Positions 1-31,419 of a stretch of DNA of 64,000 nucleotides are shown one piece after another (the first letter of the stretch is position 1; every line of letters starts with the position of its first letter). The DNA lies in the NCBI GenBank assembly GCA_963814375.1, contig CAWFCQ010000008.1:1-64000 (forward strand), given 5' to 3'. The DNA comes from an uncultured Chloroflexia bacterium. Lineage in GTDB: Bacteria; Chloroflexota; Limnocylindria; QHBO01. Below the pieces are notes generated by a model, which was given only the letters and a program-made list of their open reading frames with translations, was not told the origin of the DNA and did no database searches. The position numbers were made by a program, and so were the translations under genes.

Positions 1-40
1 CGGCGGGATCGGTGTGTCGAAGTTCGAACGCTCGCTTGCT

Positions 41-684
41 TCAGCGATATCGGTCCTTTGCCTGTTCGCCGGCCCGCTTGCGCTCGTCGCCGGCCCAGAT
101 CTCGACGAGCTGGACCTGGACCTTCAACCGATGCCGGCGCGCTGACACATCCGTCCCAGCAGTTGGTGCGCCCGTAGGCTGCCGGAAGCTCAGGGCGTCG
201 TCCGACCCGCGCGCGATCTCGATCTCGTCCGCCGTGCGCGCCTCCCACGCGGCGATGTCCGCCACGAGGGCCGCGGAGGGATCGGCCTCGGCGTCGAGGC
301 GATCAAGCAGCGGCTTGCCGGCGTCATGGGCGTCGCCCAGGAGCGCGGACGCCTCGATGTGATCCGCCTCGAAGAGGTCCGAGAGATCGAGGCGGTCGTA
401 GAAGGCGCGGCGGGTGGCATTGCGCGGCGCGATGCGTCGGTCTCCGGGTGGCTCAGCTCGTAGGCGTCCTCGACGGCCTTCGCGAGGCGGCGGGCTCGGA
501 GGTGGTCGGCATCGGCGCGCGGCTCGATCCACAGCCAGTACACCAGCAGGAGCGCCAGCGGCACGAGTGCGCCGACCACGTACAGCACCGGATCGCGGGG
601 CGCGGAGATCGCCAGCCCCGTCACGAACGAGGTGATGAGACTCGCGACCAGGACGCCCACCAGCTCGGCCGCTCGCCGTCCCAT
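41..684 (-). CDS. Hypothetical membrane protein (2 N-terminal TM helices), frameshifted near 430
   Basis: ORF 190..684 N-terminus (two hydrophobic segments) joins ORF 41..712 C-terminus (RRAFYDRLDL...); TAGAGT-N6-ATG leaderless-type start. Confidence 0.6.
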
Positions 685-742
685 GCCCCGACTCTAGCGG
701 GCGGTGCGCCACGGCGCACCGGGCATGTCTTGGGCGACCACC

Positions 743-1246
743 TCAGGCGCGGCGGTTTGCAAGCCTCATGCGGATGAACATCAGAGCCGTGCCGAGCAGC
801 ACGAAACCGGCGATAGCCGCCACCGCATCGGGCCGCGCATCGGTGGCCGTGTTCGGCAGCGTGCCCGTCACAGTGATGCCGTCGGAGTCGCCGCACTCGG
901 ATTCCGGGAGCAACGCCACGACGGTGATGTCACCCGGGCTCCCGGTTGCGGTAAACGTGACGCTGAAGTCTTGGCCTTCCGGGGTGGTAACAGCCGGCAC
1001 GGCATCCTCGGCGGGTGACGCATCGGCCCCGGGCAGCACGAAGATCGACGCGCCGCCAAAGTTGCCCGAAACCGTGAACTGGCCACCGACCGGGACGGTC
1101 CCGGGCTCGGCGGTCACGACGCATCCGCTGGGGTGATCGCCCTCCGACTCGGGATGGGCCAGCACGACGCCGGTCGTAAGGGCCACGAGCGCGGTGGCGG
1201 CGACGAGTGCCGCGCTGAATCGGGTAACGGATCCTGAAGTCCCCAT
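743..1246 (-). CDS. Secreted protein with C-terminal LPNTA sorting signal
   Basis: Signal peptide ending VLA; C-terminal LPNTA + hydrophobic helix + basic tail (RMRLANRRA). Confidence 0.8.
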   Translation of the reverse strand: MGTSGSVTRFSAALVAATALVALTTGVVLAHPESEGDHPSGCVVTAEPGTVPVGGQFTVSGNFGGASIFVLPGADASPAEDAVPAVTTPEGQDFSVTFTATGSPGDITVVALLPESECGDSDGITVTGTLPNTATDARPDAVAAIAGFVLLGTALMFIRMRLANRRA

Positions 1247-1320
1247 TCTTCACTCCTCCGTGAAACCGTGGGGCACGCACAACGAGTTTGCGCCCACGGC
1301 GCAAGGGCCCGGCATGAGGA

Positions 1321-1349
1321 AACGGCCGCCGGATGGACCGGCGGCCGTT
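1321..1349 (-). terminator. Stem-loop terminator downstream of the lipoprotein gene
   Basis: AACGGCCGCCGG-ATGGA-CCGGCGGCCGTT perfect 12-bp stem. Confidence 0.65.
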
Positions 1350-1368
1350 CGCGAGAGAGGTGCCTGGG

Positions 1369-1888
1369 CTACGGGATCGCCACGAAGCCCAGGATCTGCG
1401 CGTTCGGGTTGAAGACGATGCCGTTGGCCTCCTCGAGGCCGAGCAGCTCGGCGTTGGCCATGTCCCAGCTGTCGCCCTCGTTGTCCATGCCGAGGACCTC
1501 GAGCATCGGACCGTCGAAGGTCGGTTCGGCCGGGTCGCTGACCGAGGTCGCCAGGTAGATGGTGCCATCGGTGTCGCGGAAGAGGACGCCGTGGACGAGC
1601 GACGGGAGCTCTCCGTCGGGGCCGCCATCCAGGGTCTCCTGGATCGTGGCGCCCGGACCGGAGAACGCCATCTCGGCGACGGTGATCGTGCCGGCACTCT
1701 CGCGCTCCTCATCGGCAGGCTCTGAGGGCTCTTCCGAAGGGACGACCGATCGGTTCGGCCGATGGGGTGGTGGCCGGCTCGCTTGGCGATGGCGCCTCCG
1801 ATGACGGGGCTCCTCCGCTCGTGCCGCAAGCAACCAGGACGATCGCGAGAATCGAGAGCGCGATGAAGGATCGCATCGGATGAGTCAT
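1369..1888 (-). CDS. Lipoprotein, frameshifted near 1745
   Basis: Lipobox LVAC, Ser/Pro linker, then an acidic domain in ORF 1369..1833. Confidence 0.7.
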
Positions 1889-2071
1889 GGCTCGGTTGTC
1901 TCGTACGGGCGGCTCATGGGTCGGCCGCGGTCTGGACGCATCCTCGTGGCGCGCGATGCCGCGTTCATTGGGCATCTGTCTCAGGGCAGATGAGGCAATC
2001 GGGCGTACATCCGCGGCCGGCAGGCAACGAACGACGTGACCGCAGCCCAGTGGTCGCCGCCGCCCGCAGTT

Positions 2072-2200
2072 TTCTCCGTGCCAGTAATCAACGGAGACCG
2101 AGGACGGGTTCGAGGCCCGGTTGTTACCCGGGCTGGACAATCCACAACGAGAATCGGGCTAGATCGGCGTTCCTTCTCCGTTGGTTACCAGAACCGGTAA
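2072..2200 (+). repeat. Triple-box element copy 1
   Basis: Boxes at 2072 (TTCTC-N6-AGTAA), 2124 (TTACC-N6-GGACA), 2185 (TTACC-N6-GGTAA); inward TCAACGGAGA / TCTCCGTTGG. Confidence 0.9.
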
Positions 2201-2350
2201 ACCTCGGCGAGCCCTGACGTGCGCCCACTGTTGAGCGTACGCCTGAGTGCAACGTCGTAGAGCCCGGGGCTGGACGGCGGCGGTATCGTCAAGCTAACAA
2301 CCGTAGGCAGGCACCGACGCACCGGTTGTGCCCACGCGGCGTCGAATGGA

Positions 2351-2704
2351 TTGTTGAGTCTCGCGAATCGCGTCGACGCGCTGGCGGTCCAGCTGCCGGA
2401 GGGCGATCCTCGGAAGGCGGAGTTCCGACGCCTGATCGCCGCCCTGGCCGATGAGTGCGGCTGCACGATGGGCGGCATCTTCCTCGTGGCCGCAACCGTC
2501 GTCGCCATCGGCTGGTTCGTCGTCACCGGCGGACTCGGTATCGGCTCGGGGGCCCTGGCGGCCGCCCTCGTCTTCGCCGCGTCCCTGGTCGGCAAGGCGA
2601 TCGGGCTCGGAATCGCCCGCATCCGGCTGCTCCGCCTCCGGCACGAGCTCACCGCGCGGCTCGCATCGGTCCCGATCGCGGCTCCCGCGCAGGGCGAGAG
2701 CTGA
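2351..2704 (+). CDS. Small membrane protein (2 TM) with an ECGC motif
   Basis: Hydrophobic hairpin after DECGC; stop lies 3 nt before the next gene; start uncertain. Confidence 0.7.
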   Translation: MLSLANRVDALAVQLPEGDPRKAEFRRLIAALADECGCTMGGIFLVAATVVAIGWFVVTGGLGIGSGALAAALVFAASLVGKAIGLGIARIRLLRLRHELTARLASVPIAAPAQGES

Positions 2705-2707
2705 CCC

Positions 2708-4770
2708 ATGTCGAGCTGCACGAAGTGGGTCACCCGGCTGGTCATCACCTGCGACAACTGGTCGCAGAAGGTCGACTACGAGTGCACCACATGGGCGGAT
2801 GAGGGCTCCTACGAGTGCTCGGAATGGGCGGATGAGGGGCGCAACGAGTGCGGCGACTGGGGGAAGAAGTGCAAGTGGTACACGCCGTGGAACTGCGTCG
2901 CGGAGTGGTTCTGCAAGGCGTGGTACTGGGTCGCTGAGTGGGTCTGCAAAGGCTGGTTCTGGCTCGCGAAGTGGGTCTGCAAGGCGTTCGCCTGGGTGGT
3001 CAAGGGATCTGCGTCGTCTTCTCGTGGTTGCTGACACTCGTCTGCGTCGCCTGGGACTGGCTGCGCTGCGCGATCCTCGCCATCGTCGCGCTGTTCACGG
3101 AGCTCTTCGGCGGTCGGGGTCGTGAGCGCCAGCGCAAGGTCGATCGGGTCTTCGTCCTCATGCTCGAGAACCGCTCGTTCGACCACATGTACGCGTTCAG
3201 CGGGCTCACCGGCGTGGGGATCGATGGTCAGCCGACGACGGCGGACGTGGCCGGGCCGGCCGACACGAACATGGATCCGACCACGAATCAGCCGGTCGCC
3301 ATCAGCCAGCCCGCCGACTTCGCTCTCAAGAACGTCGACAAGGACCCGCCCCACGAGTTCTGCGACGCGCTCGTTGCGCTGACCGGCGTCGACGTCTTCG
3401 ACCCGGCCGTCGGCTACCCGCCGATCAATAACTCGGGCTTCGTCGCGCACTACCTCGCCAAGGGCGGCGCCAGCGCCCAGCGAGCGATGAGCGTCTTCGG
3501 ACCGGAGCAGCTTCCCGTGCTCAACACCCTCGCCCGCGAGTTCGCGGTGTGCGACGCCTGGTTCTCGTCGCTGCCGGGCCCGACCTGGCCGAATCGGTTC
3601 TTCGCGATGGCGGCGTCATCCGGCTCGCTCGACGACAGCCCGAGCACGGCCGACGTCATCCTCTCGGAGACGCTCAACGGTTACCGATTCTGGAACGGCA
3701 CGATCTTCGACAAGCTCGACGACCGATGCATCGAGTGGAACGTCGTCGAGGGTGACGAGTTCCCGGTCGCCTTCGCGCTGCACGGCATGAACCTCAACGC
3801 GCTCCAGGGCCGGTTCGAGGACTTCTCCGACTGGACGTCCTCGGTGCAGGGGGCGGGGTACGGTCCGAAGTTCATCTTCATCGAGCCGCAGTACGGCGAG
3901 TCCACCTTCGGCGGCACCGGGCCTGGCGACTACACGTGCGGCAACTCGATGCATCCGCTCGACGACGTCGTGCGCGGCGAGCGCCTCATCAAGGACACCT
4001 ACGAGGCAATCCGCAGCTCACCGCACTGGGAGTCGAGCATGCTGATCGTCACCTTCGACGAGCACGGCGGCTTCTACGACCACGTCGCGCCGCCCGCCGC
4101 CGTGCCGCCCGGCGACGTCGCGGTCGACAGCTATAACCACTACGGCTTCAAGTTCGACCAGCTCGGCGTCCGCGTCCCGACGCTCGTCATCTCGCCGTGG
4201 ACCGCGAAGGGCGTGATCGATCACACGACCTACGACCACACCTCGATCCTCTCGACCGTCGAGCGCCTCTTCGGCTTCGGGGCGCTGACCAACCGCGACG
4301 CCGCCGCGGCCGACGCCCTGCACCTGCTGAGCCTCGAGGCACCGCGGACCGATGCGCCGCTCACCCTCCCGGAGCCGGCAACCAATCCGACTCCGCTGGG
4401 CTGCTCGGACGAGGAGGAGTCGGAGGACGTCCTGCTGCGGCGTCGGTCCGAGCTGCGGCTGTCCCGAGAGGACCGCCAAGCGCGTGCCGCGGATGGAGAG
4501 GCCGGCGACGTCACGGAGGAGCCCGTCGCGAGCTCGACTCAGCTCGGCTTCGCGCAGGTCGCCCTCATGAAGGTGCTCCAGAGCGCGCGGTATCCCGAGC
4601 GCGAGCGCTGGCGCGAACAGTTCGAGACGATCGCGACCCAGGCCGATGCGGAGCTCTTCATGGTCGAGGCAAAGCTCGCGATTCGCCATGACGTCGACTT
4701 CAAGCGTCCGCGCGACACGGACCGTCCGGGAGGGACGCGCGACGCTCGCCTGGGGGCAACCCGCCGTTAA
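2708..4770 (+). CDS. Phosphoesterase / phospholipase C (AcpA/PlcH-like) with N-terminal Cys/Trp 11-residue repeat domain; frameshift near 3005
   Basis: VLMLENRSFDH, GPTWPNR, TFDEHGGFYDHV and GVRVP motifs; one extra G in AAGGGATC fuses ORF 2708..3034 to ORF 2938..4770. Confidence 0.85.
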
Positions 4771-4786
4771 CCGCGCCTCCGGTCGG

Positions 4787-5344
4787 TCAGCTGACCTGAT
4801 GGGAGATCACCGGATCGCCATCGACCTCGCGGGTCCTCGTCAGCCACAGGTGCTCGCCGTCGGGCACGTCGAAGATGATCCAGTAGACGCTCCCTTCGGC
4901 CATGCCGGGTTGGAGCTCATCGGCCGTGAGCTGTTGCGGACGCTCGGGCGGACCTGTCCCGTCGTCGCACCTGAAGTCGAAGAAATGGGTGCCGTCCGCA
5001 TCGTCGCGGACAGCCCATCCGATCAGCGGGTCCAGCACGTCGGGATCGGGTATCTCCTCGTGGATCTCGACCGCCAGGCACCAGCCGTCGTCGTTGGCTG
5101 AGGGATCCCATCGGCGAAGGTCGGCCACCTCGTACAGGAACCCGTCGATCGTCACTGGCTCGCCGAGCTCGAGCTGCATCGGCGCATCGGCTGAATCGGA
5201 GACCGGGTACGGCGCCTGGGTCGTGGCGGGTAACGCCTCCCAGGAGCTCGACGTAGCGATCGTGGGTTGGCCGGCGTCGGTTGCACAGCCCGTCGCGGCG
5301 GTGGCGAGGCCAACGATCGCGACGGCGACGCGACGGGTGAGCAT
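4787..5344 (-). CDS. Lipoprotein of unknown function
   Basis: MLTRRVAVAIVGLATAATGC lipobox-like signal; acidic beta-rich domain. Confidence 0.7.
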   Translation of the reverse strand: MLTRRVAVAIVGLATAATGCATDAGQPTIATSSSWEALPATTQAPYPVSDSADAPMQLELGEPVTIDGFLYEVADLRRWDPSANDDGWCLAVEIHEEIPDPDVLDPLIGWAVRDDADGTHFFDFRCDDGTGPPERPQQLTADELQPGMAEGSVYWIIFDVPDGEHLWLTRTREVDGDPVISHQVS

Positions 5345-5382
5345 CGGCGGAGTATCGGTGATGCGCTGCCGCTGCACTTGCT

Positions 5383-5512
5383 TTCTCCGTGCGGGTAACC
5401 AACGGAGAGGAAGGGTGCATTCGATGGTCGCGTGTTACCAGGATTGGGAAATCCACGACGAGAATCGGCCCGGATCGGGTCTTCCTTCGCCGATGGTTAC
5501 CAGCTGGGGTAA
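5383..5512 (+). repeat. Triple-box element copy 2
   Basis: Boxes at 5383, 5435, 5497 (52/62 spacing); CCAACGGAGA; ATCCACGACGAGAATCGG identical in copy 3 and one mismatch in copy 1. Confidence 0.9.
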
Positions 5513-5696
5513 ACCACGGCGCGAAATCGGTGCCCTTGCCATCGGGGGGAGAATGTAGGGGAGAGACCGCGCCCCGAGTGCGCGGCGCCACAGGACCGAT
5601 GGGCGCTGCACGCGACTACCTCTCCGGAGGCCCGTGCCCAGCCACGCCGGCGCTCCAGACAGCCCCGCTGCGGGCATGTTTCGGAGGAGCACGCTG

Positions 5697-7919
5697 ATGC
5701 TGGACCCACGAACGCCGCTTCGCGACCTCGACCTCAATCTCGACGACCTCGTCGTCAAATGGCCCTGGCTCGGCTTCGGGATTCAAGGAGTCGAGGTCAC
5801 CCAGGCGGTTCAGTACTACGACAGCGAGAAGCACCTGACCGATGCTGCCGATCGGCAGCCGGACAACAGCGTGACGCTCATCGCCGGCAAGCCCGCGTGG
5901 GTTCGCGTCTACGTTCGCAGCGGCTGGTTCTCGGGTGACATCGCCGGCGTCACGGGCACCATCAGCGTCCGTCGGCGCGACTTCGGGTTCCTGTACCTGC
6001 CGGCCGGCACCCTGACCGCGGAGCCTCCGGGGACGGTGACCGCTCGCCGCAGCCCGTCGTACGCCACGGAGCGCGGGACGCTGGGCTACACGCTGAACTT
6101 CATCATCCCGGCGGCGATGATGTGCGGGCATCTCAGGCTCGACGTCCACGTCACATCACCGGGCGGCTGGACTGCCGACCAGCGCGTCTACATCGACGCC
6201 ACGCTGCAGCAGACGGTGCGCCTCGCCGGAATCATGGTCGGCTACAACGGCCCGTCGAGCACCGCGGCCGGGGCTCCGAACATCACGCGGGCGGCCCCGA
6301 CGCTGAACGACCTTCGGACCACCTCGGCCTGGACGCTGACCACGTTCCCGGTCAGGAGCTTCGCCACCTATCGCACGGCGGGGACGGTGACGTGGAACCT
6401 CCCGCTCACCGATCCGCCGAGCTGTCCGGGCTGTTGTACGCCGAACTGGGTTGCGCTGAACACCGCCGTTCAGCAGGTCCGGATCGCCGACGGCAATCGG
6501 ACCGACGTCCTCTACTACGGGCTCATGGCAGCGGGGATACCGATGGGCCCCATCATCGGCTGCAACAGCGGGGGAGTGAGCACGGGATCGATCGGCGACG
6601 AGGTGACGATGGCCCACGAGCTCGGTCACGCGTGCGGCCGACCGCACTCGCCGTGCGGGACGCCGGGCGATCCCGCCTATCCCGCCTACGAGCCATACGA
6701 TCCGGCTGGCACGCCGATGGCCTCGGTCGGCGAGTACGGACTCGACATCACCAACGGCGCGATCAAGTCGCCGGCCACCTTCAAGGACTTCATGTCCTAC
6801 TGTGGTCCGCGATGGATCTCACTCTTCGTCACGGGCCGTCTGACCAACAACGCGTTGCTCGATCCGGTCCGTGTCTGCGAGGACCGTCCATGGTGGGTCG
6901 ACGAGATCCTCATCGATCGCCAGCTCATCCCCGAGAAGTGGCTCCCGAACCCGCCACCTGAGCTTCCCTGGCTGGAGCGCACCGTGACACCGCAGCCGGT
7001 CATCTCAATCATCGGCGTCCTGCACGGCCCGAACGAGCTCGAGGTCCGCAGCGTGGTGCGCGTCGAAGCCGAGAGCGCGATCACGAACGGCCGCGCCCTC
7101 GACATGCGGGCAGAGCTGGTCGGCCGGCAGGGCGCAGTCGTCGCGAGCGGGGCGCTCTACGCGCTCCAGTCGTACGCGAACGGCGACTGCGGCTGCGATG
7201 GCGGCCCCGAAGACGAGGCGGGCGAGACGTACCCGCGCCTCGTTCAGGCCTTCGTCCCCGACGCCGAGCCGGGCTCCGAGCTGCGGATCACCCGCGGCGA
7301 CGAGATCGCATGGTCGCGGAAGGCGTCAGCACGGCGACCGAAGATCGGCGAGACCGCAGCGAGTCTCGAAGGTGACCGACTCGAGGTCAGCTGGTCCACC
7401 GACGCGGCCGGCGAGACGGAGCCGGAAGCGCTCGTTCAGTGGAGTTCCGACCGCGGTCGGACCTGGCATGGTCTTGGCGCTGGGCTTCGCGGCGATTCCG
7501 CGCGGCTCGATGCGCGTGGGCTGCCGTCCGGACGGGTCTCGATCCGCGTGCTCGTCAGCGACGGGTTCCACACTGCCACCTCCCGCACCGTGAGCGTGGC
7601 CATCAAGGCACGGCCACCGGAGCTCAGCATCCTCAGCCCTCGCGACGGAAACACCTTCGCGGCCGGCGCGCCGATGCGCCTGTGGGGCATGACGTCGGAT
7701 GCGGCCGAGGATTCCAGCGACGACGACTCGACAGTCTGGGAGGTCGACGGCAAGGAGGTCGCGACCGGGCTGGACGCCTTCGTCACCGCTCCGAGGCCTG
7801 GAAACCACCGGGCCACGCTGCGCACGCGCGGTCGCGGGCGGCGTGCTGAGGCGACGGTCAGGTTCCGGACGGTCGAGTTCGGCGAGGAGCGCGATGCCGA
7901 ATCGCCTGACGCCCGCTGA
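5697..7919 (+). CDS. Metzincin-type zinc metalloprotease with C-terminal Ig/Fn3-like domains
   Basis: HELGHACGRPH (HExxHxxGxxH) and DFMSY Met-turn; RBS GGAGGAG before ATG 5697. Confidence 0.85.
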   Translation: MLDPRTPLRDLDLNLDDLVVKWPWLGFGIQGVEVTQAVQYYDSEKHLTDAADRQPDNSVTLIAGKPAWVRVYVRSGWFSGDIAGVTGTISVRRRDFGFLYLPAGTLTAEPPGTVTARRSPSYATERGTLGYTLNFIIPAAMMCGHLRLDVHVTSPGGWTADQRVYIDATLQQTVRLAGIMVGYNGPSSTAAGAPNITRAAPTLNDLRTTSAWTLTTFPVRSFATYRTAGTVTWNLPLTDPPSCPGCCTPNWVALNTAVQQVRIADGNRTDVLYYGLMAAGIPMGPIIGCNSGGVSTGSIGDEVTMAHELGHACGRPHSPCGTPGDPAYPAYEPYDPAGTPMASVGEYGLDITNGAIKSPATFKDFMSYCGPRWISLFVTGRLTNNALLDPVRVCEDRPWWVDEILIDRQLIPEKWLPNPPPELPWLERTVTPQPVISIIGVLHGPNELEVRSVVRVEAESAITNGRALDMRAELVGRQGAVVASGALYALQSYANGDCGCDGGPEDEAGETYPRLVQAFVPDAEPGSELRITRGDEIAWSRKASARRPKIGETAASLEGDRLEVSWSTDAAGETEPEALVQWSSDRGRTWHGLGAGLRGDSARLDARGLPSGRVSIRVLVSDGFHTATSRTVSVAIKARPPELSILSPRDGNTFAAGAPMRLWGMTSDAAEDSSDDDSTVWEVDGKEVATGLDAFVTAPRPGNHRATLRTRGRGRRAEATVRFRTVEFGEERDAESPDAR

Positions 7920-7996
7920 CCTCACCGGGATGGTGTTCGCGGCTGCTCGTTGACGAGCGGCCGCGAGCGCCTCGATCCCGCGGCGTCCGTTGCCGT

Positions 7997-8126
7997 TTAT
8001 CCGTCTCGGTAAGCAACGGAGAGCGAGGACGGTCTCGATGTCCGCGCGTTACCGGCCATGAGAAATCCACGACGAGAATCGGTCCAGATCGGTCGCTCCT
8101 TCGCCGTTAGTTACCGAAGCGAGTAA
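7997..8126 (+). repeat. Triple-box element copy 3
   Basis: Boxes at 7997, 8049, 8111 (52/62); GCAACGGAGA / TCGCCGTTAG. Confidence 0.9.
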
Positions 8127-8147
8127 ACGGCGCGGAGACGTCCGCGT

Positions 8148-8174
8148 TGTCACGCCACGCCTGCGTGTCCCGTC
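8148..8174 (+). promoter_or_regulatory. ECF41 (SigJ)-type promoter
   Basis: TGTCACG-N16-CGTC matches the ECF41 consensus TGTCACA-n16-CGTC and lies upstream of the epimerase-sigma pair. Confidence 0.75.
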
Positions 8175-8208
8175 ACCCCTCTGGACACACATCCAGAAGG
8201 GGAGACTC

Positions 8209-9150
8209 ATGAAGGTTCTCGTTGCGGGAGCGACCGGCGTCATCGGACGACAGCTCCTGCCAAAGCTCGTGGCCGCCGGTCACGAGGTCGCGGGCACGAC
8301 GCGCACGCCTGACAAGGAGCGCGTCGTGCGCGAGCTGGGCGCAAGGCCCTTCGTCGTCGACATCCTCGATGCCGATGCGGTCGCGCGAGCGGTGGCGGAC
8401 TTCGCGCCGGAGGTGATCGTCCACGAGGCGACGGCGCTATCGTCGGTTGACATGCGCCACTTCGAGCGCGCCTTCGCCGTGACGAATCGCCTCCGAACGG
8501 AGGGAACCGATCATCTGCTGTCGGCCGGCCGCGCCATCGGCGTTCAACGCTTCGTCGCGCAGAGCTTCGCCGGCTGGCCCTTCGCCCGCAGCGGGCCGCG
8601 CGTCAAGACGGAGGACGATGCCCTCGATCCCGACCCGATCGGACCGATGCGAACCACGCTCGCCGCGATCCGGCATCTCGAGGCCGCCGTCATCGGCGCC
8701 GGCTGGACCGACGGGATCGTGCTTCGCTACGGCGCTCTGTATGGTCCCGGCACGTCGATGGATGCCGATGGCGGCGACATGACCGCGATGATCCGCCGCG
8801 GCTTCTTCCCGATCATCGGCGATGGCGAGGGCATGTCGTCCTTCATTCATGTCGCCGATGCGGCGGACGCGACCGTCGCGGCAGTCGAGCATGGCACCCG
8901 TGGTGTGTACCAGGTCGTCGACGACGAACCGGCGCCGGCACGCGAGTGGCTGCCTGCGGTCGCCGCCGCCCTCGGGGCGCCGAAGCCGCGACGGATCCCG
9001 CGCTGGCTGGGGCGGCTGCTCGCCGGCGAGGCGATCGTGGCGATCTCGACCGAGACGCGTGGCGCGACGAACGACCGCGCCAAGCGCGTGCTCGGCTGGA
9101 CGCCACGCCACGCCTCGTGGCGTGACTCGCTGGGTCGGGCGGGCGCGTGA
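8209..9150 (+). CDS. NAD-dependent epimerase/dehydratase family protein
   Basis: GATGVIG Rossmann motif, LRYGALYGPG, SFIHVADAA. Confidence 0.9.
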   Translation: MKVLVAGATGVIGRQLLPKLVAAGHEVAGTTRTPDKERVVRELGARPFVVDILDADAVARAVADFAPEVIVHEATALSSVDMRHFERAFAVTNRLRTEGTDHLLSAGRAIGVQRFVAQSFAGWPFARSGPRVKTEDDALDPDPIGPMRTTLAAIRHLEAAVIGAGWTDGIVLRYGALYGPGTSMDADGGDMTAMIRRGFFPIIGDGEGMSSFIHVADAADATVAAVEHGTRGVYQVVDDEPAPAREWLPAVAAALGAPKPRRIPRWLGRLLAGEAIVAISTETRGATNDRAKRVLGWTPRHASWRDSLGRAGA

Positions 9151-10097
9151 CGAAGGCCGCCGCAGACCTCGAGCCGCTGCGACGGCGCGCCTTCGCGATC
9201 GCGTATCGGATGCTCGGATCGGTGGCGGAGGCCGAGGATGTCGTGCAGGAAACCCTCATCCGCCTCCACCGCGCGACCGAGGCCGGGCAGAAGATCGAGT
9301 CGCCGCAGGCGTACGCAGCGACGATCACGACCCGGCTGGCGATCGACGTCCTTCGCTCGGCGCGCGTCCGCCGCGAGCAATACGTGGGTGACTGGCTGCC
9401 CGAGCCGCTGGTGGAAGCTCCCGAAGGCGATCCGGCGCAACGGGCGGAGATGGTCGACTCCCTCTCCTTCGCCTTCCTGGCGGTACTCGAGCGGCTGACG
9501 CCGGAGCAGCGTGCCGTGTTCCTCCTCCGCGACGTGTTCGACTACGGCTACGACGAGATCGCCGAGATCGTCGACAAGACTCCGGAGAACGCCCGCCAGC
9601 TGGCCGTTCGTGCGCGACGCCGAGTTCGCGAGGGACGACCACGGTTCGCGGTGTCATCCCGGCAGCGCGACCGGCTGGCGTCGAGCTTCTTCGCCGCCGT
9701 CGAAGGCGGCGACCTCAAGGCGCTCGAGGCCTGCCTGGCCGAGGACGTCGTGCTGCGGGGCGACGGCGGCGGCAAGGCTCCGGCACTCGGCCACTCGATC
9801 GTCGGACGCGCCGACGTCGCCCGCGCGCTGATGGCCTGGACTCGCATCGGCGAGCGGTTCGGCGGGTCTCTCCAACGCGTGACGGTCAACGGCGGACCGG
9901 GTGCGCTGGCGCTGGATCCGGACGGACGGTTGCTTGCCGTGTGGGCATTGGACGTCACCGACGGCGGGATCCGCGGCGTGGCCTCCATGGTGAACCCGGA
10001 CAAGCTCCGCCACATCGGCGAGGTCGGGTCGATGCGCGATGCCCTGGACAGCCTCAGTCGGCAGCGTAGACCCGACGCGGGCCCTCGATCCCCTTGA
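9147..10097 (+). CDS. sigJ: ECF41 sigma factor (SigJ-like) with SnoaL-like C-terminus
   Basis: AYRMLGSVAEAEDVVQE, YVGDWLPEP, DGGGK and NPDKL ECF41 signatures. Confidence 0.88.
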   Translation: MTKAAADLEPLRRRAFAIAYRMLGSVAEAEDVVQETLIRLHRATEAGQKIESPQAYAATITTRLAIDVLRSARVRREQYVGDWLPEPLVEAPEGDPAQRAEMVDSLSFAFLAVLERLTPEQRAVFLLRDVFDYGYDEIAEIVDKTPENARQLAVRARRRVREGRPRFAVSSRQRDRLASSFFAAVEGGDLKALEACLAEDVVLRGDGGGKAPALGHSIVGRADVARALMAWTRIGERFGGSLQRVTVNGGPGALALDPDGRLLAVWALDVTDGGIRGVASMVNPDKLRHIGEVGSMRDALDSLSRQRRPDAGPRSP

Positions 10098-11367
10098 GAA
10101 CATGCTCGCCACGGTCGGTGAGGCCGATGCCCGAGCCCTCGACGAGGTCACGGGTCGTCTGGCTGACGATGACCTCGCCCGCCTGCGCGAGCGCCAGGAT
10201 CCTCGCCGCGAGGTGGATGGCGATTCCCCGTGGTCCATCGGCACCGAGCTCCACCTCGCCAGTGTGGACGCCGGCTCGGATCTCGAGGCCGAGGTCGCGT
10301 TCCGCCTCCCTGATCGCCATGCCGCAGCGGATGGCACGGGCGGGGCCGTCGAAGCGAGCGAGGAAGCCGTCGCCGGCGGTATCGACTTCGATGCCACCGT
10401 ACCGGTCCAGCTGCTGCCGGACCGCATCGTGGTGACTCTGGAGAAGGCGTGACCAGGCGGCATCGCCGATCTCGCGCGCGCGATCGGTGGAGCCGACGAT
10501 GTCGGTAAAGAGGATCGTGGCAAGGACCCGATCGGCGTAGGGAGCGGGGCGTACGCCGGTGAGGAACTCTTCGATCGGATCGACGATCTGGTCCGCATCG
10601 ACGAACGGGACATGAACGTCGCCCGGCAGCTCGATGAACTGAGCGCCCGGGATGTGCTCCGCGATGTATTTCCCTTCGGCGACCCGCGAGTCGAGGTCGC
10701 CGGTGCGGTGGAGGACCAGGGTCGGGCAGCGGATCGCGGGGAGGATGTCGCGGACGTCGACCTGCGAATTCATGAGGATGAGATCGCGTGCCGCGGCCGG
10801 GCTCAGCGACGCACGTGCCATGCGGTGAAACCAGGCAGTGGTTCCGGCATCGGCGTGCGGGGCCATCCTGGAGATATCGACGTCCACGCCCCAGCCCTCC
10901 TCGAGGTGGGCCGCGGTCGCCTGCCGCTCCTCCCAGGTCGGCGCCCACGGGTAGTCATCGGTCCGAATGCGCTTGGCGTAGCTGCCGTACAGCACCAGAG
11001 CCCGTGTCCGATGTGGGTACGTTGCGGCGAACAACGCGCTCATCGGCCCGCCCTCGGAGTAGCCGAAGAGCGCCGCTCGCTCGCTGCCGGCGGCATCCAT
11101 CACCGCCCGGACGTCGTCCATCCGAGCCTCGAGATCGGGCTGTCCCACGCTGCGGTCGGAGAGCCCGGTGCCGCGCTTGTCGAACCTGATGAGCCGCGCA
11201 AATGAGCCGAGGCGCTCCAGGAGGGCAGCGTTGCCAGGATGCTCCCAGCCGATCTCGAGGTGGCTGAAGAAGCCCGTGACCAGCACGAGATCGAACGGCC
11301 CGCCACCCGTGATCTCGTAGGCGATGTTGACGTCGCCGCTGCGCGCATACGAGATCGTCCCGGGCAT
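10054..11367 (-). CDS. Alpha/beta-hydrolase fused to class III adenylate/guanylate cyclase (LipJ-like)
   Basis: FDKRGTGLSD, GYSEGG; LFTDIVGST, AGDGF, RAGVHTGE, LKGI. Confidence 0.9.
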   Translation of the reverse strand: MPGTISYARSGDVNIAYEITGGGPFDLVLVTGFFSHLEIGWEHPGNAALLERLGSFARLIRFDKRGTGLSDRSVGQPDLEARMDDVRAVMDAAGSERAALFGYSEGGPMSALFAATYPHRTRALVLYGSYAKRIRTDDYPWAPTWEERQATAAHLEEGWGVDVDISRMAPHADAGTTAWFHRMARASLSPAAARDLILMNSQVDVRDILPAIRCPTLVLHRTGDLDSRVAEGKYIAEHIPGAQFIELPGDVHVPFVDADQIVDPIEEFLTGVRPAPYADRVLATILFTDIVGSTDRAREIGDAAWSRLLQSHHDAVRQQLDRYGGIEVDTAGDGFLARFDGPARAIRCGMAIREAERDLGLEIRAGVHTGEVELGADGPRGIAIHLAARILALAQAGEVIVSQTTRDLVEGSGIGLTDRGEHVLKGIEGPRRVYAAD

Positions 11368-11426
11368 GACGACAACGGTACGCCGTCTTCCCCGTTGCGT
11401 CGCTCCATGGCAAATGCGACACGGAT

Positions 11427-11494
11427 TTGTCGGCCCGGGTAAGCGACAGCCATCGGCAGGCGGTTGGTTCGCCGTTGCTTACTGAGGCCGGTAA
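11427..11494 (-). repeat. Triple-box element copy 4 (partial, reversed)
   Basis: Boxes at 11427 (TTGTC-N6-GGTAA) and 11479 (TTACT-N6-GGTAA) 52 bp apart with TCGCCGTTGC; third box not recognisable. Confidence 0.75.
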
Positions 11495-11734
11495 AGGCCA
11501 GCGGCCGCGGCGCAAGACGTTCGGGCGGTCCGGATCGGATGCGACGCCTAGTCAATTCGGTCTTGTCACCGGCCGGCGGCGAGGTGCATAGTGACCGGGA
11601 CGCTTTGAAAGCCGGGCGGTGGTTGTGAGCATCAGCTCCACACGTCGCGTCACTCCTGCGTTGGTGCCTCGAGCGCGGTCTTCCACGTTGTCCCGGCTCC
11701 CCGGCAGTGCCACGGCCGCATTTCCGCGCGAGTG

Positions 11735-14270
11735 ATGAGCTTCCTCGGTCAGCTGATCGCGCTGGGCATGGCCAGGGCGGCGCTCGGTGCGTCGATTCCG
11801 GCGTTCGGTGGTGAGGATCCGCTCGGCAACGCCCCCGGCTGGGAGAACTGGCACCACGAGGGGCTGACCCGGCAGGCCAGCCGATCGGCAAAGTGGACCG
11901 AAACCGCGCAGAACGCGCTGGCGTTCCACGCCGATTACCTGGACTCCTACCTCTACAACCCGCTCTGGTGGTTCGACGTGGGCAACGGCGGTGGCCCGGA
12001 CCGCCTGTCGCTGGCGATGTCCTCGCGAACCGACCTGGTCAAGGTCCACTTCGACGACCTCACGCATCCCGAATCGGTCCGAAGCACGTGGCGTCGCTAC
12101 CTGTCCGGAACCGCGGCGGGACTGATCTGGCTAGGAGGAGCCGATTCCGGACCGAGCGAGCAGCGAGTGGCGATGGCCTACAACATCGTCGGCGCCTCTC
12201 TGCACGCCATCCAGGACTTCTACACGCACTCGAACTGGATCGACGACGAGGATCTGCGGAGCAAGACCTGGTTCGAGACCGATCCGGAGCTGCGGGACTG
12301 CCTGAGCCTCTGGACCGGGACGTACGAGCTGCCTGAGCACCTTGGCGTATTGCCCCACGGAAACTTCGTCTACGCCTGCACGGTCATCAACAACTTCGGC
12401 TCGGAGGGCCGCAGCCGTTCTGGACGCCGTGTGCCACGCCGCCTCGCCGCTTGCGACCTCGTCGCTGTGCTCGTGGTTCAGGGAATGCGCCGACACGGAG
12501 AACCTCCAGCCGCCGACCATCGAGATCCCCGTCGATCTCCCGGTCGTGGACGAGACGGTCACGCTGCCGCCGAATGTGCTCTGGGTCGAGCCCGGGATCA
12601 ACGTCGACAACCGCTGGTCGGCCGAGACGGGCGTGAAGATCCGGGGCCTCGCGCCGGCGGTCACCGGGAAGATGGCGTTCGAGACGGCCTACGAGCTGGC
12701 CTATCGCAGCTCCTGCCAGTGGCTCCACATCCTGGGACACGTCATGGACGCGGCTCAGCTCGCCGACTTCTGGCAGTCGGTCAAGACAGGCGGTGTCGCC
12801 GATGGCGACTACAAGACGCCGAGAGCGCCGTGGGAGGACTTCTCGCAGCTTCCGTATCGGTTCATCTCGGCCGGGCCCTATCCGCCGACGGATGCCAGCG
12901 CCGATGTCGACGACTGGTACCTGCGGCTGCTCATCCGCACCGCCGGCGACAGCTTCGCCGGCACCGATGCCGACATCGTCCCGTGGATCAATGGCAAGGC
13001 GTTTCCGCCGCTCGATCACGGCATCCCGCCATCGGTGCCGCCGCCGGGGCAGCCCGCGGTCCGGACTCTCGACCAGTCGCTCCTCGGGCACAACGACTTC
13101 GAGGCGGGGGACGTCGCGGCGTACATGATCGGACCGCTCGACGAGCCGCCGCACACGGTGGCGCTCGTGAACGACGCTCCCGACGCGGGGGACGTGATCC
13201 AGGCCGCCATCAACGAGATCGGTCGCAGCCTCACCAGCCTCTGGAACTCCGTCGTCGGGCTGTGGGGCTACCACGCCGATTACGTCGGTCAGAACCACTG
13301 GGTCTTCCCGGCGGCGCAGCTCGCGACGATCGGCGCGGGATCGAGGCGGTACTTCTATCTCGAGTGTGACGGTCGGTCCGAGGGCAACTTCATCGTCTCA
13401 GGCTGGGTGGAAGGCACCTCCCAGACCGGGCGGTTCGCCAACGGTGTTCCCTGGCGACGCTTCACGGTCCAGTTCGCGGAGCTCATTTGCGAGAAGGAGT
13501 CGGAATGGGATCGCTTCACGACTTCCGACGAGCCGTTCGTGCTCGGCCTCGTCATCCCCCACGGCGGGACGCAGCCGATGTCCGCCTGGCGCACGGTGCC
13601 GTACACGAACGTGAACACCGGCGACAGGAACCCCATCGGCCGCACCTTCACCGTCGAGGTGCCGCAGCGCTACGGTTTCATCTCGGTGGCGTGCGCCGTG
13701 TACGAGTCGGACGACGAGACGCCGAATGACCGGGACCTGCTCCTGGCACGGTTCGCCGATGACACAGCCGCCGCCATCGCTCAGCCGGAGAAGTCCTTCA
13801 TCGAGGCGCTGGGCGAATCGATCGCGGCCGGCTGGAAGCTCGCATCGGTCGAGGCGGTCGCCTTCAAGCGTTCGCCGAAGGTTGATGTCCGTGCCTACGA
13901 GCCGAGGACCTTCGACCAGTGGGTCGATGGCGGTTCGCGCGTGGAGTGGACGCTCACCGATCCTCGGACGTGGGAGGTCGACGTCCCCGACATCATCGAT
14001 TGCGGCTGCAAGGCCTGCACCGATGACGTCGTCCTCCCTGGACTGGCGCCCGAGATCCAGACCCTCGACTTCCGACCGGTTCCCGGAACCAGGGTCGATA
14101 CCGGGCCGGATTCCGGTAAAGAGCTGCGCGTCAACCTCGCTCAGCTGGCAGCCGGGTCCGTGTGGGAGGCCGATCCCGACGAGCCCCGGCTCATCGAGGA
14201 CGAGCCCCAGGATCCGCCGCGACCCAGGGACGATTGCGCTGACGAGACCCCAGCTCAGAAGGGCCGATGA
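11735..14270 (+). CDS. Het-C/Zn-dependent phospholipase-C-like domain + PLAT/LH2 domain protein; frameshift near 12405
   Basis: HHEGLT...HFDD...LHAIQDFYTHSNW (Het-C/VWA7-N-like); TAGDSFAGTDAD...NDFEAG (PLAT); joins ORFs 11732 and 12342. Confidence 0.75.
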
Positions 14271-14810: not shown

Positions 14811-14868
14811 CGACGAGGTTGGCTCGAGAGCCGTGCCAGTGGCGGCGCTCCGTGCGCCAGCGCGCCGT

Positions 14869-14999
14869 TTACCTGCGCGAGTAACCAACGGACAACCAGC
14901 GGCCGATTCGAGCCTGCAGATATCCGGAAATTACCAGCAGAGGTAACGGATGGCTGCGGAAGCGACCCTGCATCTCCGTTGCTTACCGACGCGGGATAA
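14869..14999 (-). repeat. Triple-box element copy 5 (reversed)
   Basis: Boxes at 14869, 14931, 14983 (62/52); CCAACGGACA / TCTCCGTTGC. Confidence 0.9.
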
Positions 15000-15078
15000 A
15001 TGGGACTCGAGCGCCCGGGAAACGGTGAGCGCGACAGCGTGTGCGCGGCTACCCTCGCTCCACACACGGAGGACGAGG

Positions 15079-15516: not shown

Positions 15517-15911
15517 CCTACGAGGCCGATCCACGGGTCGACGCGTACATCGATCCGTTGCCCGACTGGCAGCAGCGGATCTGCCAGGAGGTGCGCGAGA
15601 TCGTCCACGAGGCCGATCCCGAGGTGGTCGAGACGATCAAGCGGACCGTTCAGCCGTACTTCGTGCTGGACGGCAACATCGCGGCGCTCCAGTCCACCAA
15701 GGACCACGTGAACGTCTTCCTGTACGACCCGCTGGTCAGCGATCCCGAGGGGATCATCACGCGGGGCCACGAGGACAAGACCGGGCGCCAGATCATGATC
15801 TTCGAGGGTGAGCCGATCAACCGGCCGGCGCTGCTGGCGATGTTCCGAGAGATCGTCGCCCACAACCGCGCCGGAGGCTGGCGCAAGCTGACGGCCGCGG
15901 GAGCGGGCTGA
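15513..15911 (+). CDS. DUF1801 (YdhG-like) protein
   Basis: DPRVDAYID.LP.WQ..IC..VR.IVH.ADP.V.ETIK pattern; ATGTGA start/stop coupling. Confidence 0.85.
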   Translation: MTYEADPRVDAYIDPLPDWQQRICQEVREIVHEADPEVVETIKRTVQPYFVLDGNIAALQSTKDHVNVFLYDPLVSDPEGIITRGHEDKTGRQIMIFEGEPINRPALLAMFREIVAHNRAGGWRKLTAAGAG

Positions 15912-15924
15912 GCGGCGCCTGCGA

Positions 15925-16054
15925 TTACCCGTGCTGATAGTCAACGGAGACCGAAACCCGATTTCGGGCCGACGAGCGACGCGGAACTATCAGCATCGGT
16001 AAGAGAAGGCCATCGGGAGGCCCCTGCTTCTCCGTTGCTTGCCGATGCCGGTAA
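15925..16054 (-). repeat. Triple-box element copy 6 (reversed)
   Basis: Boxes at 15925, 15987, 16039 (62/52); TCAACGGAGA / TCTCCGTTGC. Confidence 0.9.
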
Positions 16055-16146
16055 TTCCAGCAGCGACGCCGTTGCCCGCCGCCGAGCGTTGACCCAATGA
16101 CCACCGGCCCTCGATACTCCCCACGGCCATAGGCGGAGACGGACCC

Positions 16147-17706: not shown

Positions 17707-18456
17707 ATGTCGCCCGTCACGACGGAGACAGCAGCGGGAAACCGCCTGCTTGCCAGCCTTCCCGACTCGGAGCTCGACCGTGTCGCCCCGCTCCTGGCTG
17801 AACGCGAGCTTCGCCACGCCGAGGTGGTTGCCGAGCCGTGGCAGCCGGTCACCGAGCTCTTCTTCCCCGTCGGCTGCGTCCTCAGCGTGGTGTCCGAGAC
17901 CGCAGAGGGCCAGAGCGTGGAGGTCGCGACGGTGGGCAACGAGGGCATGATCGGGGCCGCCGCCTTCCTCGGCTCAGCCGGCGCGCCACTGTCGACGATC
18001 TGCCAGATGGAGGGATCGGCACTGGTCGGACGCACCGCCGATCTCGTCGCCGAGGACGGCGAGTCGGCGTTCCGCACCACCGTGCTTCGATACTCGTCCA
18101 CGATGCTCGTTCAGGCCGCCGTCAGCGCCTCGTGCAACCGCCTCCACCCACTCGAGCAGCGCGCCGCGAAATGGCTGCTGACGATGAGCGACCGCAGCGA
18201 TCAGGTGACCTTCACCCTCACCCACGAGTTCTTCGCCGTCATGCTCGGCGCGCATCGGCCGAGCGTCTCGCTGGCGGCCAAGATGCTCCAGCAGGGCGGG
18301 CTGATCACCTACCACCGTGGGCAGGTCGAGATCGTCGACCGTCCCGGCCTCATCGCGGCTGCCTGCGCCTGCTATCGCACGATCACCGAGCACTTCGAGC
18401 GGACCATGGGGATCAGGCTGGGCGACGAGCTCAACGGGTTGGCCGATCCGGCCTGA
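17707..18456 (+). CDS. Crp/Fnr family transcriptional regulator
   Basis: NRLLASL, VGNEGMIG, CNRLHPLEQR, LTHEFFAVMLG HTH. Confidence 0.9.
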   Translation: MSPVTTETAAGNRLLASLPDSELDRVAPLLAERELRHAEVVAEPWQPVTELFFPVGCVLSVVSETAEGQSVEVATVGNEGMIGAAAFLGSAGAPLSTICQMEGSALVGRTADLVAEDGESAFRTTVLRYSSTMLVQAAVSASCNRLHPLEQRAAKWLLTMSDRSDQVTFTLTHEFFAVMLGAHRPSVSLAAKMLQQGGLITYHRGQVEIVDRPGLIAAACACYRTITEHFERTMGIRLGDELNGLADPA

Positions 18457-18582
18457 TCGCGACCGCTCGAGCAGGGACGCGGCGCTCGCCCGATTCGCCG
18501 TCGAGCGCGCACGGCATCTTGTCCCTACACTCCGCCGGAACGCGCCGCCGGCATGCGACCAGCGGGCGAGTCCAGGAGCCTT

Positions 18583-18960
18583 CGTGCGCCGACCCCTCCG
18601 GTTCTTCTGCTTCTGATCCTCACGGCGTGCAGCGCGGTTGGCGCGCCGTCGCCGTCGGCTGCGAGGAGACGTCGCCGCCGACTGCATCGCTGACGGCATC
18701 GGACGAGCCCGCCGCGACAGTCCAATCGGCCCTCGGCACCGACGTGGGAGGGAGACCCGCAGCAGGACTCGCCCTTGTTCGGCCGACGGCCGACGATGCG
18801 CGATCAACGCAGACCTTCTGGTCGAGGCCGACGGCTCGCTTCGCAGGTAACCGGCGTCAGCGGCGGACTGAAGCCAGCCACCCGGTCTGGTCGCGGGACG
18901 GCAGCCAGATCGCGTTCGTGGCTCGAAGATCGGCGAAACCGGGAGCTCGCGGTCAGCTCG
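18583..18960 (+). pseudogene. Fragmented TolB/PD40-like lipoprotein remnant
   Basis: Fragments ILTACS (lipobox-like), EADGS and HPVWSRDGSQIAFV in different frames. Confidence 0.4.
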
Positions 18961-19039
18961 GCCTGGTCGAACGCGGATCGGCACTCGAGCGGCAGGTAGG
19001 GGGCGACCCGGCAATGCGCGTCGACCCGATCCGGGCTCG

Positions 19040-19399: not shown

Positions 19400-19479
19400 G
19401 GGCGGATCTTACGGCCGCACATGACCGATGAATTCGGTCACGCCATGCGGTCCATCGGTGTATGCGGCAATATCGGTCC

Positions 19480-23065: not shown

Positions 23066-23175
23066 GAGTCCTACGGCCTTTCTGCCGCGCTGGCTCGGCG
23101 GTTAGCGGCCACTGTCCCACGTCCCTACTGCGGACGCACTGCGGTGCCGGCGACGTGGCGCGTTGTCGCCAGGCG

Positions 23176-31418: not shown

Positions 31419-31419
31419 T

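Follow-up and report, generated by a model that had tools for sequence, protein, structure and literature searches.

A cysteine-ladder domain fused to a phospholipase C of the non-specific type in an uncultured Chloroflexota bacterium: a predicted helical hairpin and its putative membrane partner

We analyzed a 64,000-nt stretch of DNA from an uncultured Chloroflexia bacterium (assembly GCA_963814375.1, contig CAWFCQ010000008.1, positions 1 to 64,000), hereafter the window. Near its start, on the forward strand, lies a gene in which a series of cysteines spaced eleven residues apart, which we call the ladder, precedes a phospholipase C (PLC). In the assembly this ladder-PLC gene is divided by a one-base gap into two overlapping open reading frames (ORFs), and the gene of a small membrane protein, the partner, stands directly upstream. 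The features are as follows.

2346..2704, + strand: partner gene, encoding a small protein of ~117 aa with two transmembrane segments; in the assembly an ORF from TTG 2351, whereas relatives start at ATG 2346
2708-3034, + strand: ORF A, 108 aa, frame A (P0001)
2938-4770, + strand: PLC ORF, 610 aa, frame B, overlapping ORF A in a different frame (P0002)
2708..3005, + strand: frame A part of the ladder-PLC gene, residues 1-99 and the start of codon 100, with the acidic arm 1 (Cys 4-48), the tip (Cys 55, 63) and rungs 1-3 of arm 2 (Cys 69, 80, 91)
3005..3006, + strand: one-base gap at which the gene changes from frame A to frame B, located by DNA alignment and the X1 contig
3007..3138, + strand: frame B part of the ladder, with the last two rungs (Cys 102, 113) and the invariant, odd Cys 121; after Cys 121 come an amphipathic continuation of helix 2 and then a basic linker
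3139..4770, + strand: Phosphoesterase PF04185 catalytic domain of the non-specific PLC (NPC) type, helical C-terminal domain and stop codon (Pfam, Foldseek)

When the gap is bridged by one residue (X), the cysteines of the ladder fall at residues 4, 15, 26, 37 and 48, then 55 and 63, then 69, 80, 91, 102 and 113, and finally 121. Twelve of these positions had been listed in the initial annotation of this DNA and were found to be exact; the thirteenth, Cys121, was missing from that list. The cysteine codons of frame A start at nt 2717, 2750, 2783, 2816 and 2849, in 33-nt steps, followed by 2870 and 2894 and by 2912, 2945 and 2978, and those of frame B start at nt 3010, 3043 and 3067. The 32 nt from 2978 to 3010 are the sole irregular step, and the 33-nt period continues if one base is missing between the two. 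Eight cysteine pairs in the window ladder are 11 residues apart, while random placement of 13 cysteines in 121 residues gave at most 7 such pairs in 200,000 placements. The 11-residue periodicity that the initial annotation had read in each arm was borne out, in the form of CX10C repeated 5+5, and CxxW, described there as the prevailing context, occurs at 8 of the 13 cysteines. Composition counts also agree with its picture of an acidic first arm and a Trp-rich, hydrophobic second arm: arm 1 (residues 4-54, 51 residues) contains 11 D/E and 5 W, and arm 2 (residues 63-121) contains 3 D/E and 11 W, with 39 of its 59 residues hydrophobic. A mirror symmetry in which facing positions sum to 117 had been proposed as well. 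It holds for five pairs but not for the tip pair 55/63, which sums to 118, and it follows automatically from an equal period and an equal number of rungs. The informative point is instead that the rung numbers of the two arms are equal across homologues. A symmetric pairing scheme would leave the invariant Cys121 without a counterpart.

We derived a consensus from 308 arm-1 and 329 arm-2 repeats taken from 82 representatives. The arm 1 repeat reads C-(S/T/A)-(Q/E)-W-A-D-(E/Q)-G-(Y/S)-x-x and that of arm 2 C-(V/K)-A-W-(Y/V)-W-V-(A/S)-(N/K)-(W/L)-V, which places C/W/A/G in arm 1 and C/W/(Y,V)/(A,S) in arm 2 at the hendecad core positions a/d/e/h. Rung numbers, obtained by a chain-based count, were equal in both arms in 65 of the 82 representatives (3+3, 4+4, 5+5, 6+6, 7+7, 8+8 and 12+12), against an average of 19.5 and at most 34 over 10,000 permutations, although the related sequences are not independent, so that the permutation and the pairing counts overstate the significance. 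Within the PLC set the arms were equal in 82 of 88 proteins, and the extra arm-1 rung present in 20 of 81 PLC sequences was always paired with an extra arm-2 rung. The number of cysteines from the first to the last rung is even in 68 of the 82 representatives, and 71 of the 82 have exactly two extra cysteines at the tip. All ladder cysteines are invariant or nearly so in 81-86 sequences, with C102, C113 and C121 invariant in 81. Matched but variable rung numbers are the strongest sequence evidence for arm-to-arm pairing, and their range is hard to explain otherwise.

The structural prediction points in the same direction. We ran AlphaFold2 on P0115, an intact homologue of 693 aa that has 5+5 rungs and is 87% identical to the window ladder, with 86 aligned sequences. 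The model places an alpha-helix at residues 3-52, a loop at 53-59 and a second helix at 60-137, which is the antiparallel hairpin that had been suggested from the cysteine pattern; the predicted local distance difference test (pLDDT) values are 88-95 over residues 11-130, the mean is 91.2, and the predicted template-modelling score (pTM) is 0.89. A second member, P0012, was likewise predicted as two helices (3-41 and 48-121). With an 11-residue period, apolar or small residues at a, d, e and h, and both arms predicted helical at a pLDDT of ~90, the ladder has the properties of a hendecad coiled coil, and its core pattern is, as far as sequence goes, that expected of two tightly packed helices with facing cysteines. 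We are highly confident in the structural core of this interpretation, namely that one gene encodes a helical hairpin with paired arms, and we infer that the rungs are inter-helix disulfides.

That ladder and PLC belong to one gene is seen most directly in relatives. Among 17 related loci in public genome assemblies, 14 encode both as one ORF of 675-701 aa; of the remaining three, L023 and L029 are frameshifted, and in L028 the ladder is joined to a different C-terminal region. A search for longer homologues returned 89 proteins, most of them 660-723 aa, and 87 carry PF04185. The fusion that had been proposed is hence present intact in 14 of 17 loci and in 87 clusters. In a DNA alignment with L013, L014, L019 and L023, the window has a one-column gap directly after nt 3005, and the X1 contig (255 nt, covering 2918-3171 with 18 mismatches, 93% identical) has one extra base behind 3005. 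The initial annotation had restored a G near this position; one base is indeed missing directly after 3005, but in the X1 contig it is a C. The X4 contigs cease aligning at 3005, without an insertion, and the near-identical X2 and X3 contigs stop short of spanning the break. No public run held more than 0.19 of the words of the window, and all matching runs were contigs.

Other irregularities of frame were observed in this assembly, which comprises 8 contigs and 2.5 Mb. A uvrA-like gene (19516-21827, + strand) is split over three frames, with switches near 20366-20388 and 20760-20821, and its three parts align in order along a single UvrA chain (7sh1_A residues 45-327, 327-472 and 472-808). 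The X2 (~98% identical) and X4 contigs carry an additional base after 2347 and are substituted at both 2351 and 2352, which puts ATG 2346 in frame with the partner gene, whereas the ORF in the window is callable only from TTG 2351. A frame plot of G+C content at third codon positions (GC3) flagged other possible frame switches in the window, and in the long-contig metagenome-assembled genome (MAG) loci L023 (about 7383-7388) and L029 (6001-7570) the ladder-PLC gene is likewise frameshifted. The frame splits of the uvrA-like gene and the extra base after 2347 in relatives suggest that the assembly contains indel errors. Alternatively, the frameshift may be a real mutation in this strain, which would make the gene a pseudogene or yield two products, a 108-aa ladder peptide and a PLC whose translation begins at a GTG or TTG within the gene. 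Frame B does contain alternative start codons, the gap is present in the assembly as given with no same-strain read or contig spanning it, and the sole contig that does span it, X1, comes from a 93%-identical relative, all of which weighs against treating the break as an error. However, all 14 intact homologues are single ORFs, the cysteine period crosses the break, the window has other frame breaks in conserved genes, and GC3 is high (0.92) in both frames up to and beyond the break. We consider the break after 3005 most probably an assembly indel, and a real mutation improbable.

The ladder is not restricted to this enzyme. A HMMER search of 1.84 billion cluster representatives returned 108 ladder homologues at E <= 1e-3, including 33 at E <= 1e-10, with the ladder at the N or C end of proteins 67-1046 aa long. 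Pfam families found among 109 members were Phosphoesterase PF04185 (17), Peptidase_S8 (3), Kelch (3), M64, Lipase_3, GH16, GDSL, M10, M12 and others. The hidden Markov model search that the initial annotation had recommended thus identified subtilases, lipases, GH16 enzymes, metalloproteases and Kelch propellers as carriers of the ladder besides PLCs. The ladder itself also lies outside the described Pfam families: P0001 matched 0 families of Pfam and NCBIfam at E <= 1, none of the 19 Pfam families found in the 109 members models the ladder, and NCBIfam run on five members gave no match to it. A profile search of the PDB with the ladder matched only the start of the PLC (E 0.69-0.97), the ESM Atlas yielded no usable match for the ladder, and a full-text literature search, judged from abstracts, found no description of the domain. 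The source labels of the homologues are 'phospholipase C', 'alkaline phosphatase family protein', 'phosphoesterase' or 'hypothetical' only. The ladder was not found in viral contigs with six patterns from P0001, nor in plasmids by tblastn, whose low-complexity filter may hide it. Taken together, the ladder is a real, uncatalogued and portable domain.

In L013, L017, L018 and L020, a stop codon lies 0-4 codons before the ATG, and the first ladder cysteine is residue 4. Because of these upstream stop codons there is no room for a signal peptide in the four loci, and a Sec or Tat signal peptide is absent from the ladder-PLC; almost none of the ladder proteins examined has one. The ladder, which starts at residue 1-4, accordingly takes the site of a signal peptide, as had been noted. 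A second large architecture has the ladder at the C end (P0007, P0028, P0033, P0036, P0047, P0061, P0068, P0071, P0078, P0083, P0089, P0100 and P0108). These proteins begin with a conserved N-terminal domain without a signal peptide, continue with at least one hydrophobic segment, and end with the ladder a few residues from the C terminus. The N-terminal domain, which in P0007 contains an HExxH-like motif, matched no Pfam family at E <= 0.001; it may resemble DUF4157.

The enzyme part of the window gene is well defined. PF04185 matches residues 68-446 of P0002 with 229 bits against a cut-off of 23 (E 1.3e-67) and covers positions 1-354 of the 356 of the profile. The ENRSFDH-type start, the Thr nucleophile in P-T-x-P-N-R and the DEHGG acid cluster are all present in frame B of the window, and the catalytic-motif residues E, N, D, T, N, R, D, E and H show full or at least 90% conservation across 81 sequences and align with the plant enzyme NPC4, for which excerpts of PMC9837106 give roles to residues T158, E23, D299 and E300. 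In a covariation check, Cys225 and Cys263 of the PLC domain showed very little variation among the aligned sequences. The best Foldseek match is NPC4 (8haw_A, E 8.1e-31, template-modelling score TM(target) 0.79, 536 columns), followed by 8hav and 8k3g, and phmmer against NPC4 gave 8.4e-48. The P0115 model has helices at 579-668 after the catalytic domain, corresponding to the helical C-terminal domain of NPC4. The initial annotation had assigned the enzyme to the AcpA/PlcH family. These proteins do share its Pfam family, but Foldseek and phmmer favor the plant and fungal non-specific PLCs typified by NPC4. For TIGR03396 (PlcH/PlcN phosphocholine-specific PLC) the NCBIfam score was 115.7 bits against a cut-off of 580.25, with 110.6 for P0115, and for TIGR03397 (AcpA-like acid phosphatase) it was 93.9 bits against a cut-off of 362.75. 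Judged by predicted fold and sequence, the enzyme is an NPC-type PLC.

The partner gene ends a few bases before the ATG of the enzyme. Its product has an invariant CGC at the start of the first transmembrane segment, an invariant GK..G at the end of the second, 42-46 residues apart, and an Arg-rich C-terminal tail (K+R 6.4 vs D+E 0.8). The initial annotation had asked whether this ECGC membrane gene accompanies the ladder elsewhere, and it does so in 16 of 17 loci, that is, in all 16 ladder-PLC loci; L028 is without it. In L028 the ladder protein (671-2578) has upstream a 54-aa ORF (481-645, + strand) with a CxxC pair directly before a hydrophobic segment, which could be a different small cysteine-bearing membrane partner or a chance ORF. 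Neither Pfam nor NCBIfam has a family for the partner, and its 30 homologues are all labelled 'hypothetical' except one mislabelled as a mechanosensitive channel. Assignment to the holin family PF07332 (Phage_holin_3_6) was rejected, with scores of ~10-14 bits against a cut-off of 28.4 (best E 0.038, in 4 of 16 members). Prediction of a complex between the ladder (residues 1-150) and the partner gave a score of 0.00 in both runs, which were made without controls and speak neither for nor against contact between the two.

The partner and the ladder-PLC are the only genes common to the loci. The enzyme tree mixes Acidobacteriota, Pseudomonadota, Actinomycetota, Chloroflexota, Gemmatimonadota and Bacteroidota; in it the window groups with Pyrinomonadaceae and Reyranella with 100/100 support, and two Pyrinomonadaceae copies fall in different clades. 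Identity in the partner is 25-46%, versus 52-75% in the main PLC match of the enzyme. The ladder did not turn up in 36 genomes of the same genus or in 24 others of the class, three matches at E 0.05-0.17 being noise (two with stops), nor did a close orthologue of the PLC, the best match being 33% identical over part of the query. Since only two genes are shared, the tree mixes phyla and the ladder was not found in the 36 same-genus genomes, the pair may be regarded as a horizontally moving two-gene module, and positions 2346-4770 of the window behave, by the comparison of sequences, as a self-contained unit of this kind that moves between bacterial phyla.

Repeats of ~148 nt with a long-range stem lie around the module, and the copies in the window are 64-74% identical to each other. 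They are located as follows.

2068..2214, + strand: palindromic repeat copy of ~148 nt, just upstream of the module
5379..5526, + strand: second direct copy, downstream of the module and of the minus-strand ORF 4787-5377
7993-8140 and 32732-32878, + strand: further copies
14855-15003, 15911-16058 and 40743-40901, - strand: further copies

Two direct copies therefore bracket the ladder module together with one minus-strand ORF (4787-5377). A covariance model built from three copies located the repeat at ~17 sites of the 2.5-Mb genome; six of these lie on one strand of contig C7 within 15 kb (18383-33258). The orientation of the repeats relative to neighbouring genes is inconsistent. The repeat looks like an element similar to miniature inverted-repeat transposable elements (MITE) or repetitive extragenic palindromes (REP), and it is a neighbour of the module in position. 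An integron origin was considered and dropped; the genome has only two PF00589 recombinases, both on contig C4 and none near the repeats. Rfam gave no match at E <= 0.1 on 1-12000, and a scan of 1900-5600 found no promoters or terminators. Between two repeat copies there is also a 761-aa ORF (5634-7919, + strand) with an HExxH motif, for which no Pfam family matched at E <= 0.001 (translated 5790-7898).

Our best explanation combines these elements into a mobile two-gene module that encodes a disulfide-stapled hendecad hairpin serving as an anchoring or assembly rod, with the CGC protein as its co-factor; we give it a probability of roughly 50%. In the ~680-aa PLC encoded by the second gene, the first ~115 residues make up the ladder. 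The facing cysteines at each 'a' position would form one inter-helix disulfide per rung, five in the window protein, and one more (55-63) would close the tip, leaving Cys121 free. The result would be a rigid rod of ~75 Å, acidic on one face and aromatic-hydrophobic and conserved on the other. Such a rod could act as a portable anchoring or assembly module in place of a signal peptide or lipid anchor, keeping the NPC-type PLC (elsewhere proteases, lipases or glycosidases) attached to a membrane or part of an oligomer. The CGC protein, translated together with the enzyme, would then serve as a dedicated membrane co-factor for docking, insertion or thiol chemistry. According to excerpts of PMC9837106, NPC4 is without a membrane-binding domain and is tethered by S-acylation. 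The need of NPC4 for an added tether would be consistent with the ladder being the tether of the window enzyme.

Several points weigh against this explanation. Equal arm numbers show that the arms pair, not that the bonds between them are covalent, and the usual total number of cysteines is odd (19 or 21). Arm 2 is conserved at the non-core positions c, f, g and k (A 62%, W 71%, V/I 86%, V 76%), an outer-face conservation that suggests protein-protein packing more than lipid contact. The only strongly hydrophobic 19-mer (Kyte-Doolittle value >= 1.6 in 77 of 81 sequences) lies inside the base of the hairpin at about residues 97-115; the amphipathic stretch after Cys121 has 1-7 polar or charged residues per 16, and a classical transmembrane anchor is not evident. 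The partner is predicted by the positive-inside rule to be N-in/C-in, with CGC and GK..G facing the cytoplasm. The evidence on the compartment is divided. The paired, even-numbered, invariant cysteines argue for an oxidising compartment, whereas the missing signal peptide, the cytoplasm-facing motifs of the partner, the cytosolic location of NPC4 and the lack of a convincing transmembrane helix fit a cytoplasmic, peripheral rod.

The whole protein may accordingly be cytoplasmic, with a reduced rod peripheral to the membrane and a PLC whose substrates are in the inner leaflet, where it might for instance, like plant NPC4, remodel lipids to spare phosphate. The cysteine columns would then serve as a core of small residues, as two-coordinate metal sites or as a redox switch, and CGC and the free Cys121 a docking site. 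The absence of signal peptides from nearly all ladder proteins examined, the cytoplasmic end of the first transmembrane segment as the predicted place of CGC, and the invariant, odd Cys121 are in line with this, as are the nearest structures, those of NPC4 and a fungal NPC; S-acylation tethers NPC4 to the cytosolic face of the membrane, and the enzyme reacts to a lack of phosphate, as stated in excerpts of PMC9837106. However, invariant facing core cysteines, even counts and paired tip cysteines form a signature of disulfides, bonds that are rare in the bacterial cytoplasm, and rungs 11 residues (~16 Å) apart are too distant for four-cysteine metal sites. Moreover, several of the fused enzyme families (GH16, M64, M10/M12, subtilase) are usually extracytoplasmic, and we regard a cytoplasmic protein as unlikely. 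A somewhat better chance, though still short of an even one, may be given to a rod that is mainly an oligomerisation stalk, in which two to four chains bundle centrally through the conserved Trp/Val faces of arm 2 and keep the acidic arm 1 outside. This would make a multivalent enzyme instead of a membrane anchor and is compatible with either compartment. The conservation at c, f, g and k is the kind of pattern it predicts, the hydrophobic face appears from the repeat to be wider than one helix-helix contact, and designed homo-oligomeric helical bundles, PspA/Vipp1/ESCRT-III and phasin hairpins are among the closest generic folds, at Z 8-9 and thus not specific. On the other hand, the enrichment in Trp and Lys also fits interfacial membrane binding. 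The outer face of arm 2 suggests either self-association or contact with the C-terminal helices of the enzyme itself, and the high pTM is consistent with the latter.

Two further possibilities concern the partner. It could be a holin-like exporter that lets the enzyme cross the membrane without a signal peptide; the ladder would oxidise and lock afterwards. The two transmembrane segments, the spacing of the motifs, the basic C-terminal tail, the sub-threshold Phage_holin_3_6 matches and the tight abutment with the gene of an enzyme lacking a signal peptide are all compatible with such a role, but those Pfam scores are far under the cut-off, the neighbourhoods of the module share no gene for a murein hydrolase or for lysis in general, the partner gene is missing from L028, where the ladder is joined to another enzyme, and we know of no role for a CGC motif in holins. 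We find an exporter of this type quite unlikely. Highly improbable, in our judgement, is a toxin-immunity pair in which interchangeable lytic enzymes would carry the ladder for delivery or for attack on membranes and the producer would be protected by the partner. Here one could cite the constant module on variable hydrolase 'warheads', the spread of a two-gene unit across phyla and the faster evolution of the partner than of the enzyme; against it stand the lack of any conserved secretion-system gene nearby, the failure to find the ladder in viral contigs or plasmids with the query used, the fact that the partner accompanies only the PLC form, and the invariance of CGC and GK..G across phyla, which we would think unusual for immunity proteins. 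Our preferred explanation, the stapled anchoring or assembly rod with a membrane co-factor, also has a bolder extension, by analogy with Mia40 and the twin-CX9C 'folding trap'. The ladder and its partner might constitute a new bacterial oxidative-folding and anchoring system, in which an expandable (CX10C)n hairpin is threaded into or docks at the membrane without a signal peptide and is locked rung by rung by a dedicated CxC membrane protein. We think this very unlikely; if true, hydrolases would have at their disposal a hyper-stable stalk of adjustable length that is portable and spreads by horizontal transfer.

If real as modelled, the ladder would represent a new, widespread and unannotated module in which the length of a hairpin is set by matched rungs (3 to 12), each probably a disulfide, and would offer structural biology and protein design a natural, tunable and very stable rod. 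It would also link a plant-type non-specific PLC to a bacterial tethering device and a conserved, unannotated partner gene, and it would confront microbiology with the problem of how PLCs, proteases, lipases and glycosidases without signal peptides get to a membrane, or stay there, in soil bacteria. Indels in long-read MAGs easily split the ladder-PLC gene (as in the window, L023 and L029), and annotation pipelines then see a 'phospholipase C' or a 'hypothetical protein'.

Among known structures, generic helical hairpins (WXG100/EsxAB, LXG, PspA/Vipp1/ESCRT-III, phasin PhaP and chemoreceptor) have the same overall shape, at VIA-align Z 8-9.4 and Foldseek E >= 1, where Z values under ~13 are in the range for any long helical pair. 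Foldseek of the ladder model against the PDB gave no match at E <= 0.001, and the wide VIA-align search gave only generic helical pairs (Z <= 9.4); to our knowledge, none of these hairpins carries a cysteine ladder. Regularly spaced cysteines brace other repetitive folds, including the Helicobacter Hcp/Sel1-like repeats, the plant alpha-hairpinins, the beetle antifreeze beta-helix and the cystine ladder of theta-defensins. Compared by description, these have other folds or one or two staples per unit, and we know of none that is a continuous hendecad hairpin with a variable number of rungs.

For the enzyme, the closest catalytic matches are NPC4 (8haw/8hav) and the fungal RePLC (8k3g), which share the NPC4-like phosphoesterase, the helical C-terminal domain and the need for a tether. 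They differ in that NPC4 lacks the cysteine columns carried by the ladder family and has, according to excerpts of PMC9837106, a C-terminal S-acylation tether, in contrast to the N-terminal ladder of ~115 residues here. PlcH/PlcN (9gye, 9gy2) and AcpA (2d1g) belong to the same family PF04185 and share the catalytic motifs, but are more distant (Foldseek E 1e-14 to 1e-17, 17-21% identity). They are exported via signal peptides, whereas the ladder-PLC is without one.

The nearest parallel in principle is found in the twin-CX9C/CHCH proteins, which have in common with the ladder an antiparallel helical hairpin and cysteines facing each other at repeating core positions; the hairpin is stapled by disulfides there and probably so here. 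In both, a CxC-motif protein stands beside the substrate, that of the CHCH/Mia40 system carrying CPC and the one described here CGC, a resemblance that may be meaningful. The differences are considerable. CHCH proteins have two rungs at a spacing of 10, whereas the ladder, a bacterial domain that occurs in fusion with enzymes, has 3-12 rungs at a spacing of 11 and pairs an acidic arm with a Trp-rich one. Instead of a twin CX9C we found CX10C repeated 5+5, and no Pfam CHCH match occurred in the 109 members; CX10C variants of CHCH-type proteins are mentioned in the abstract of PMC12114033. The two systems have no sequence relation, and the CGC protein here is a membrane protein with two transmembrane segments whose motif is predicted to face the cytoplasm. 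By analogy, the working principle of CHCH proteins and of the ladder may nevertheless be alike. The principle of a disulfide-stapled helical hairpin is already known from twin-CX9C/CHCH proteins, and the NPC-type PLC is otherwise ordinary; new are the CX10C spacing, the variable number of rungs, the two-faced chemistry, the mobile spread among bacteria and the fusion to enzymes.

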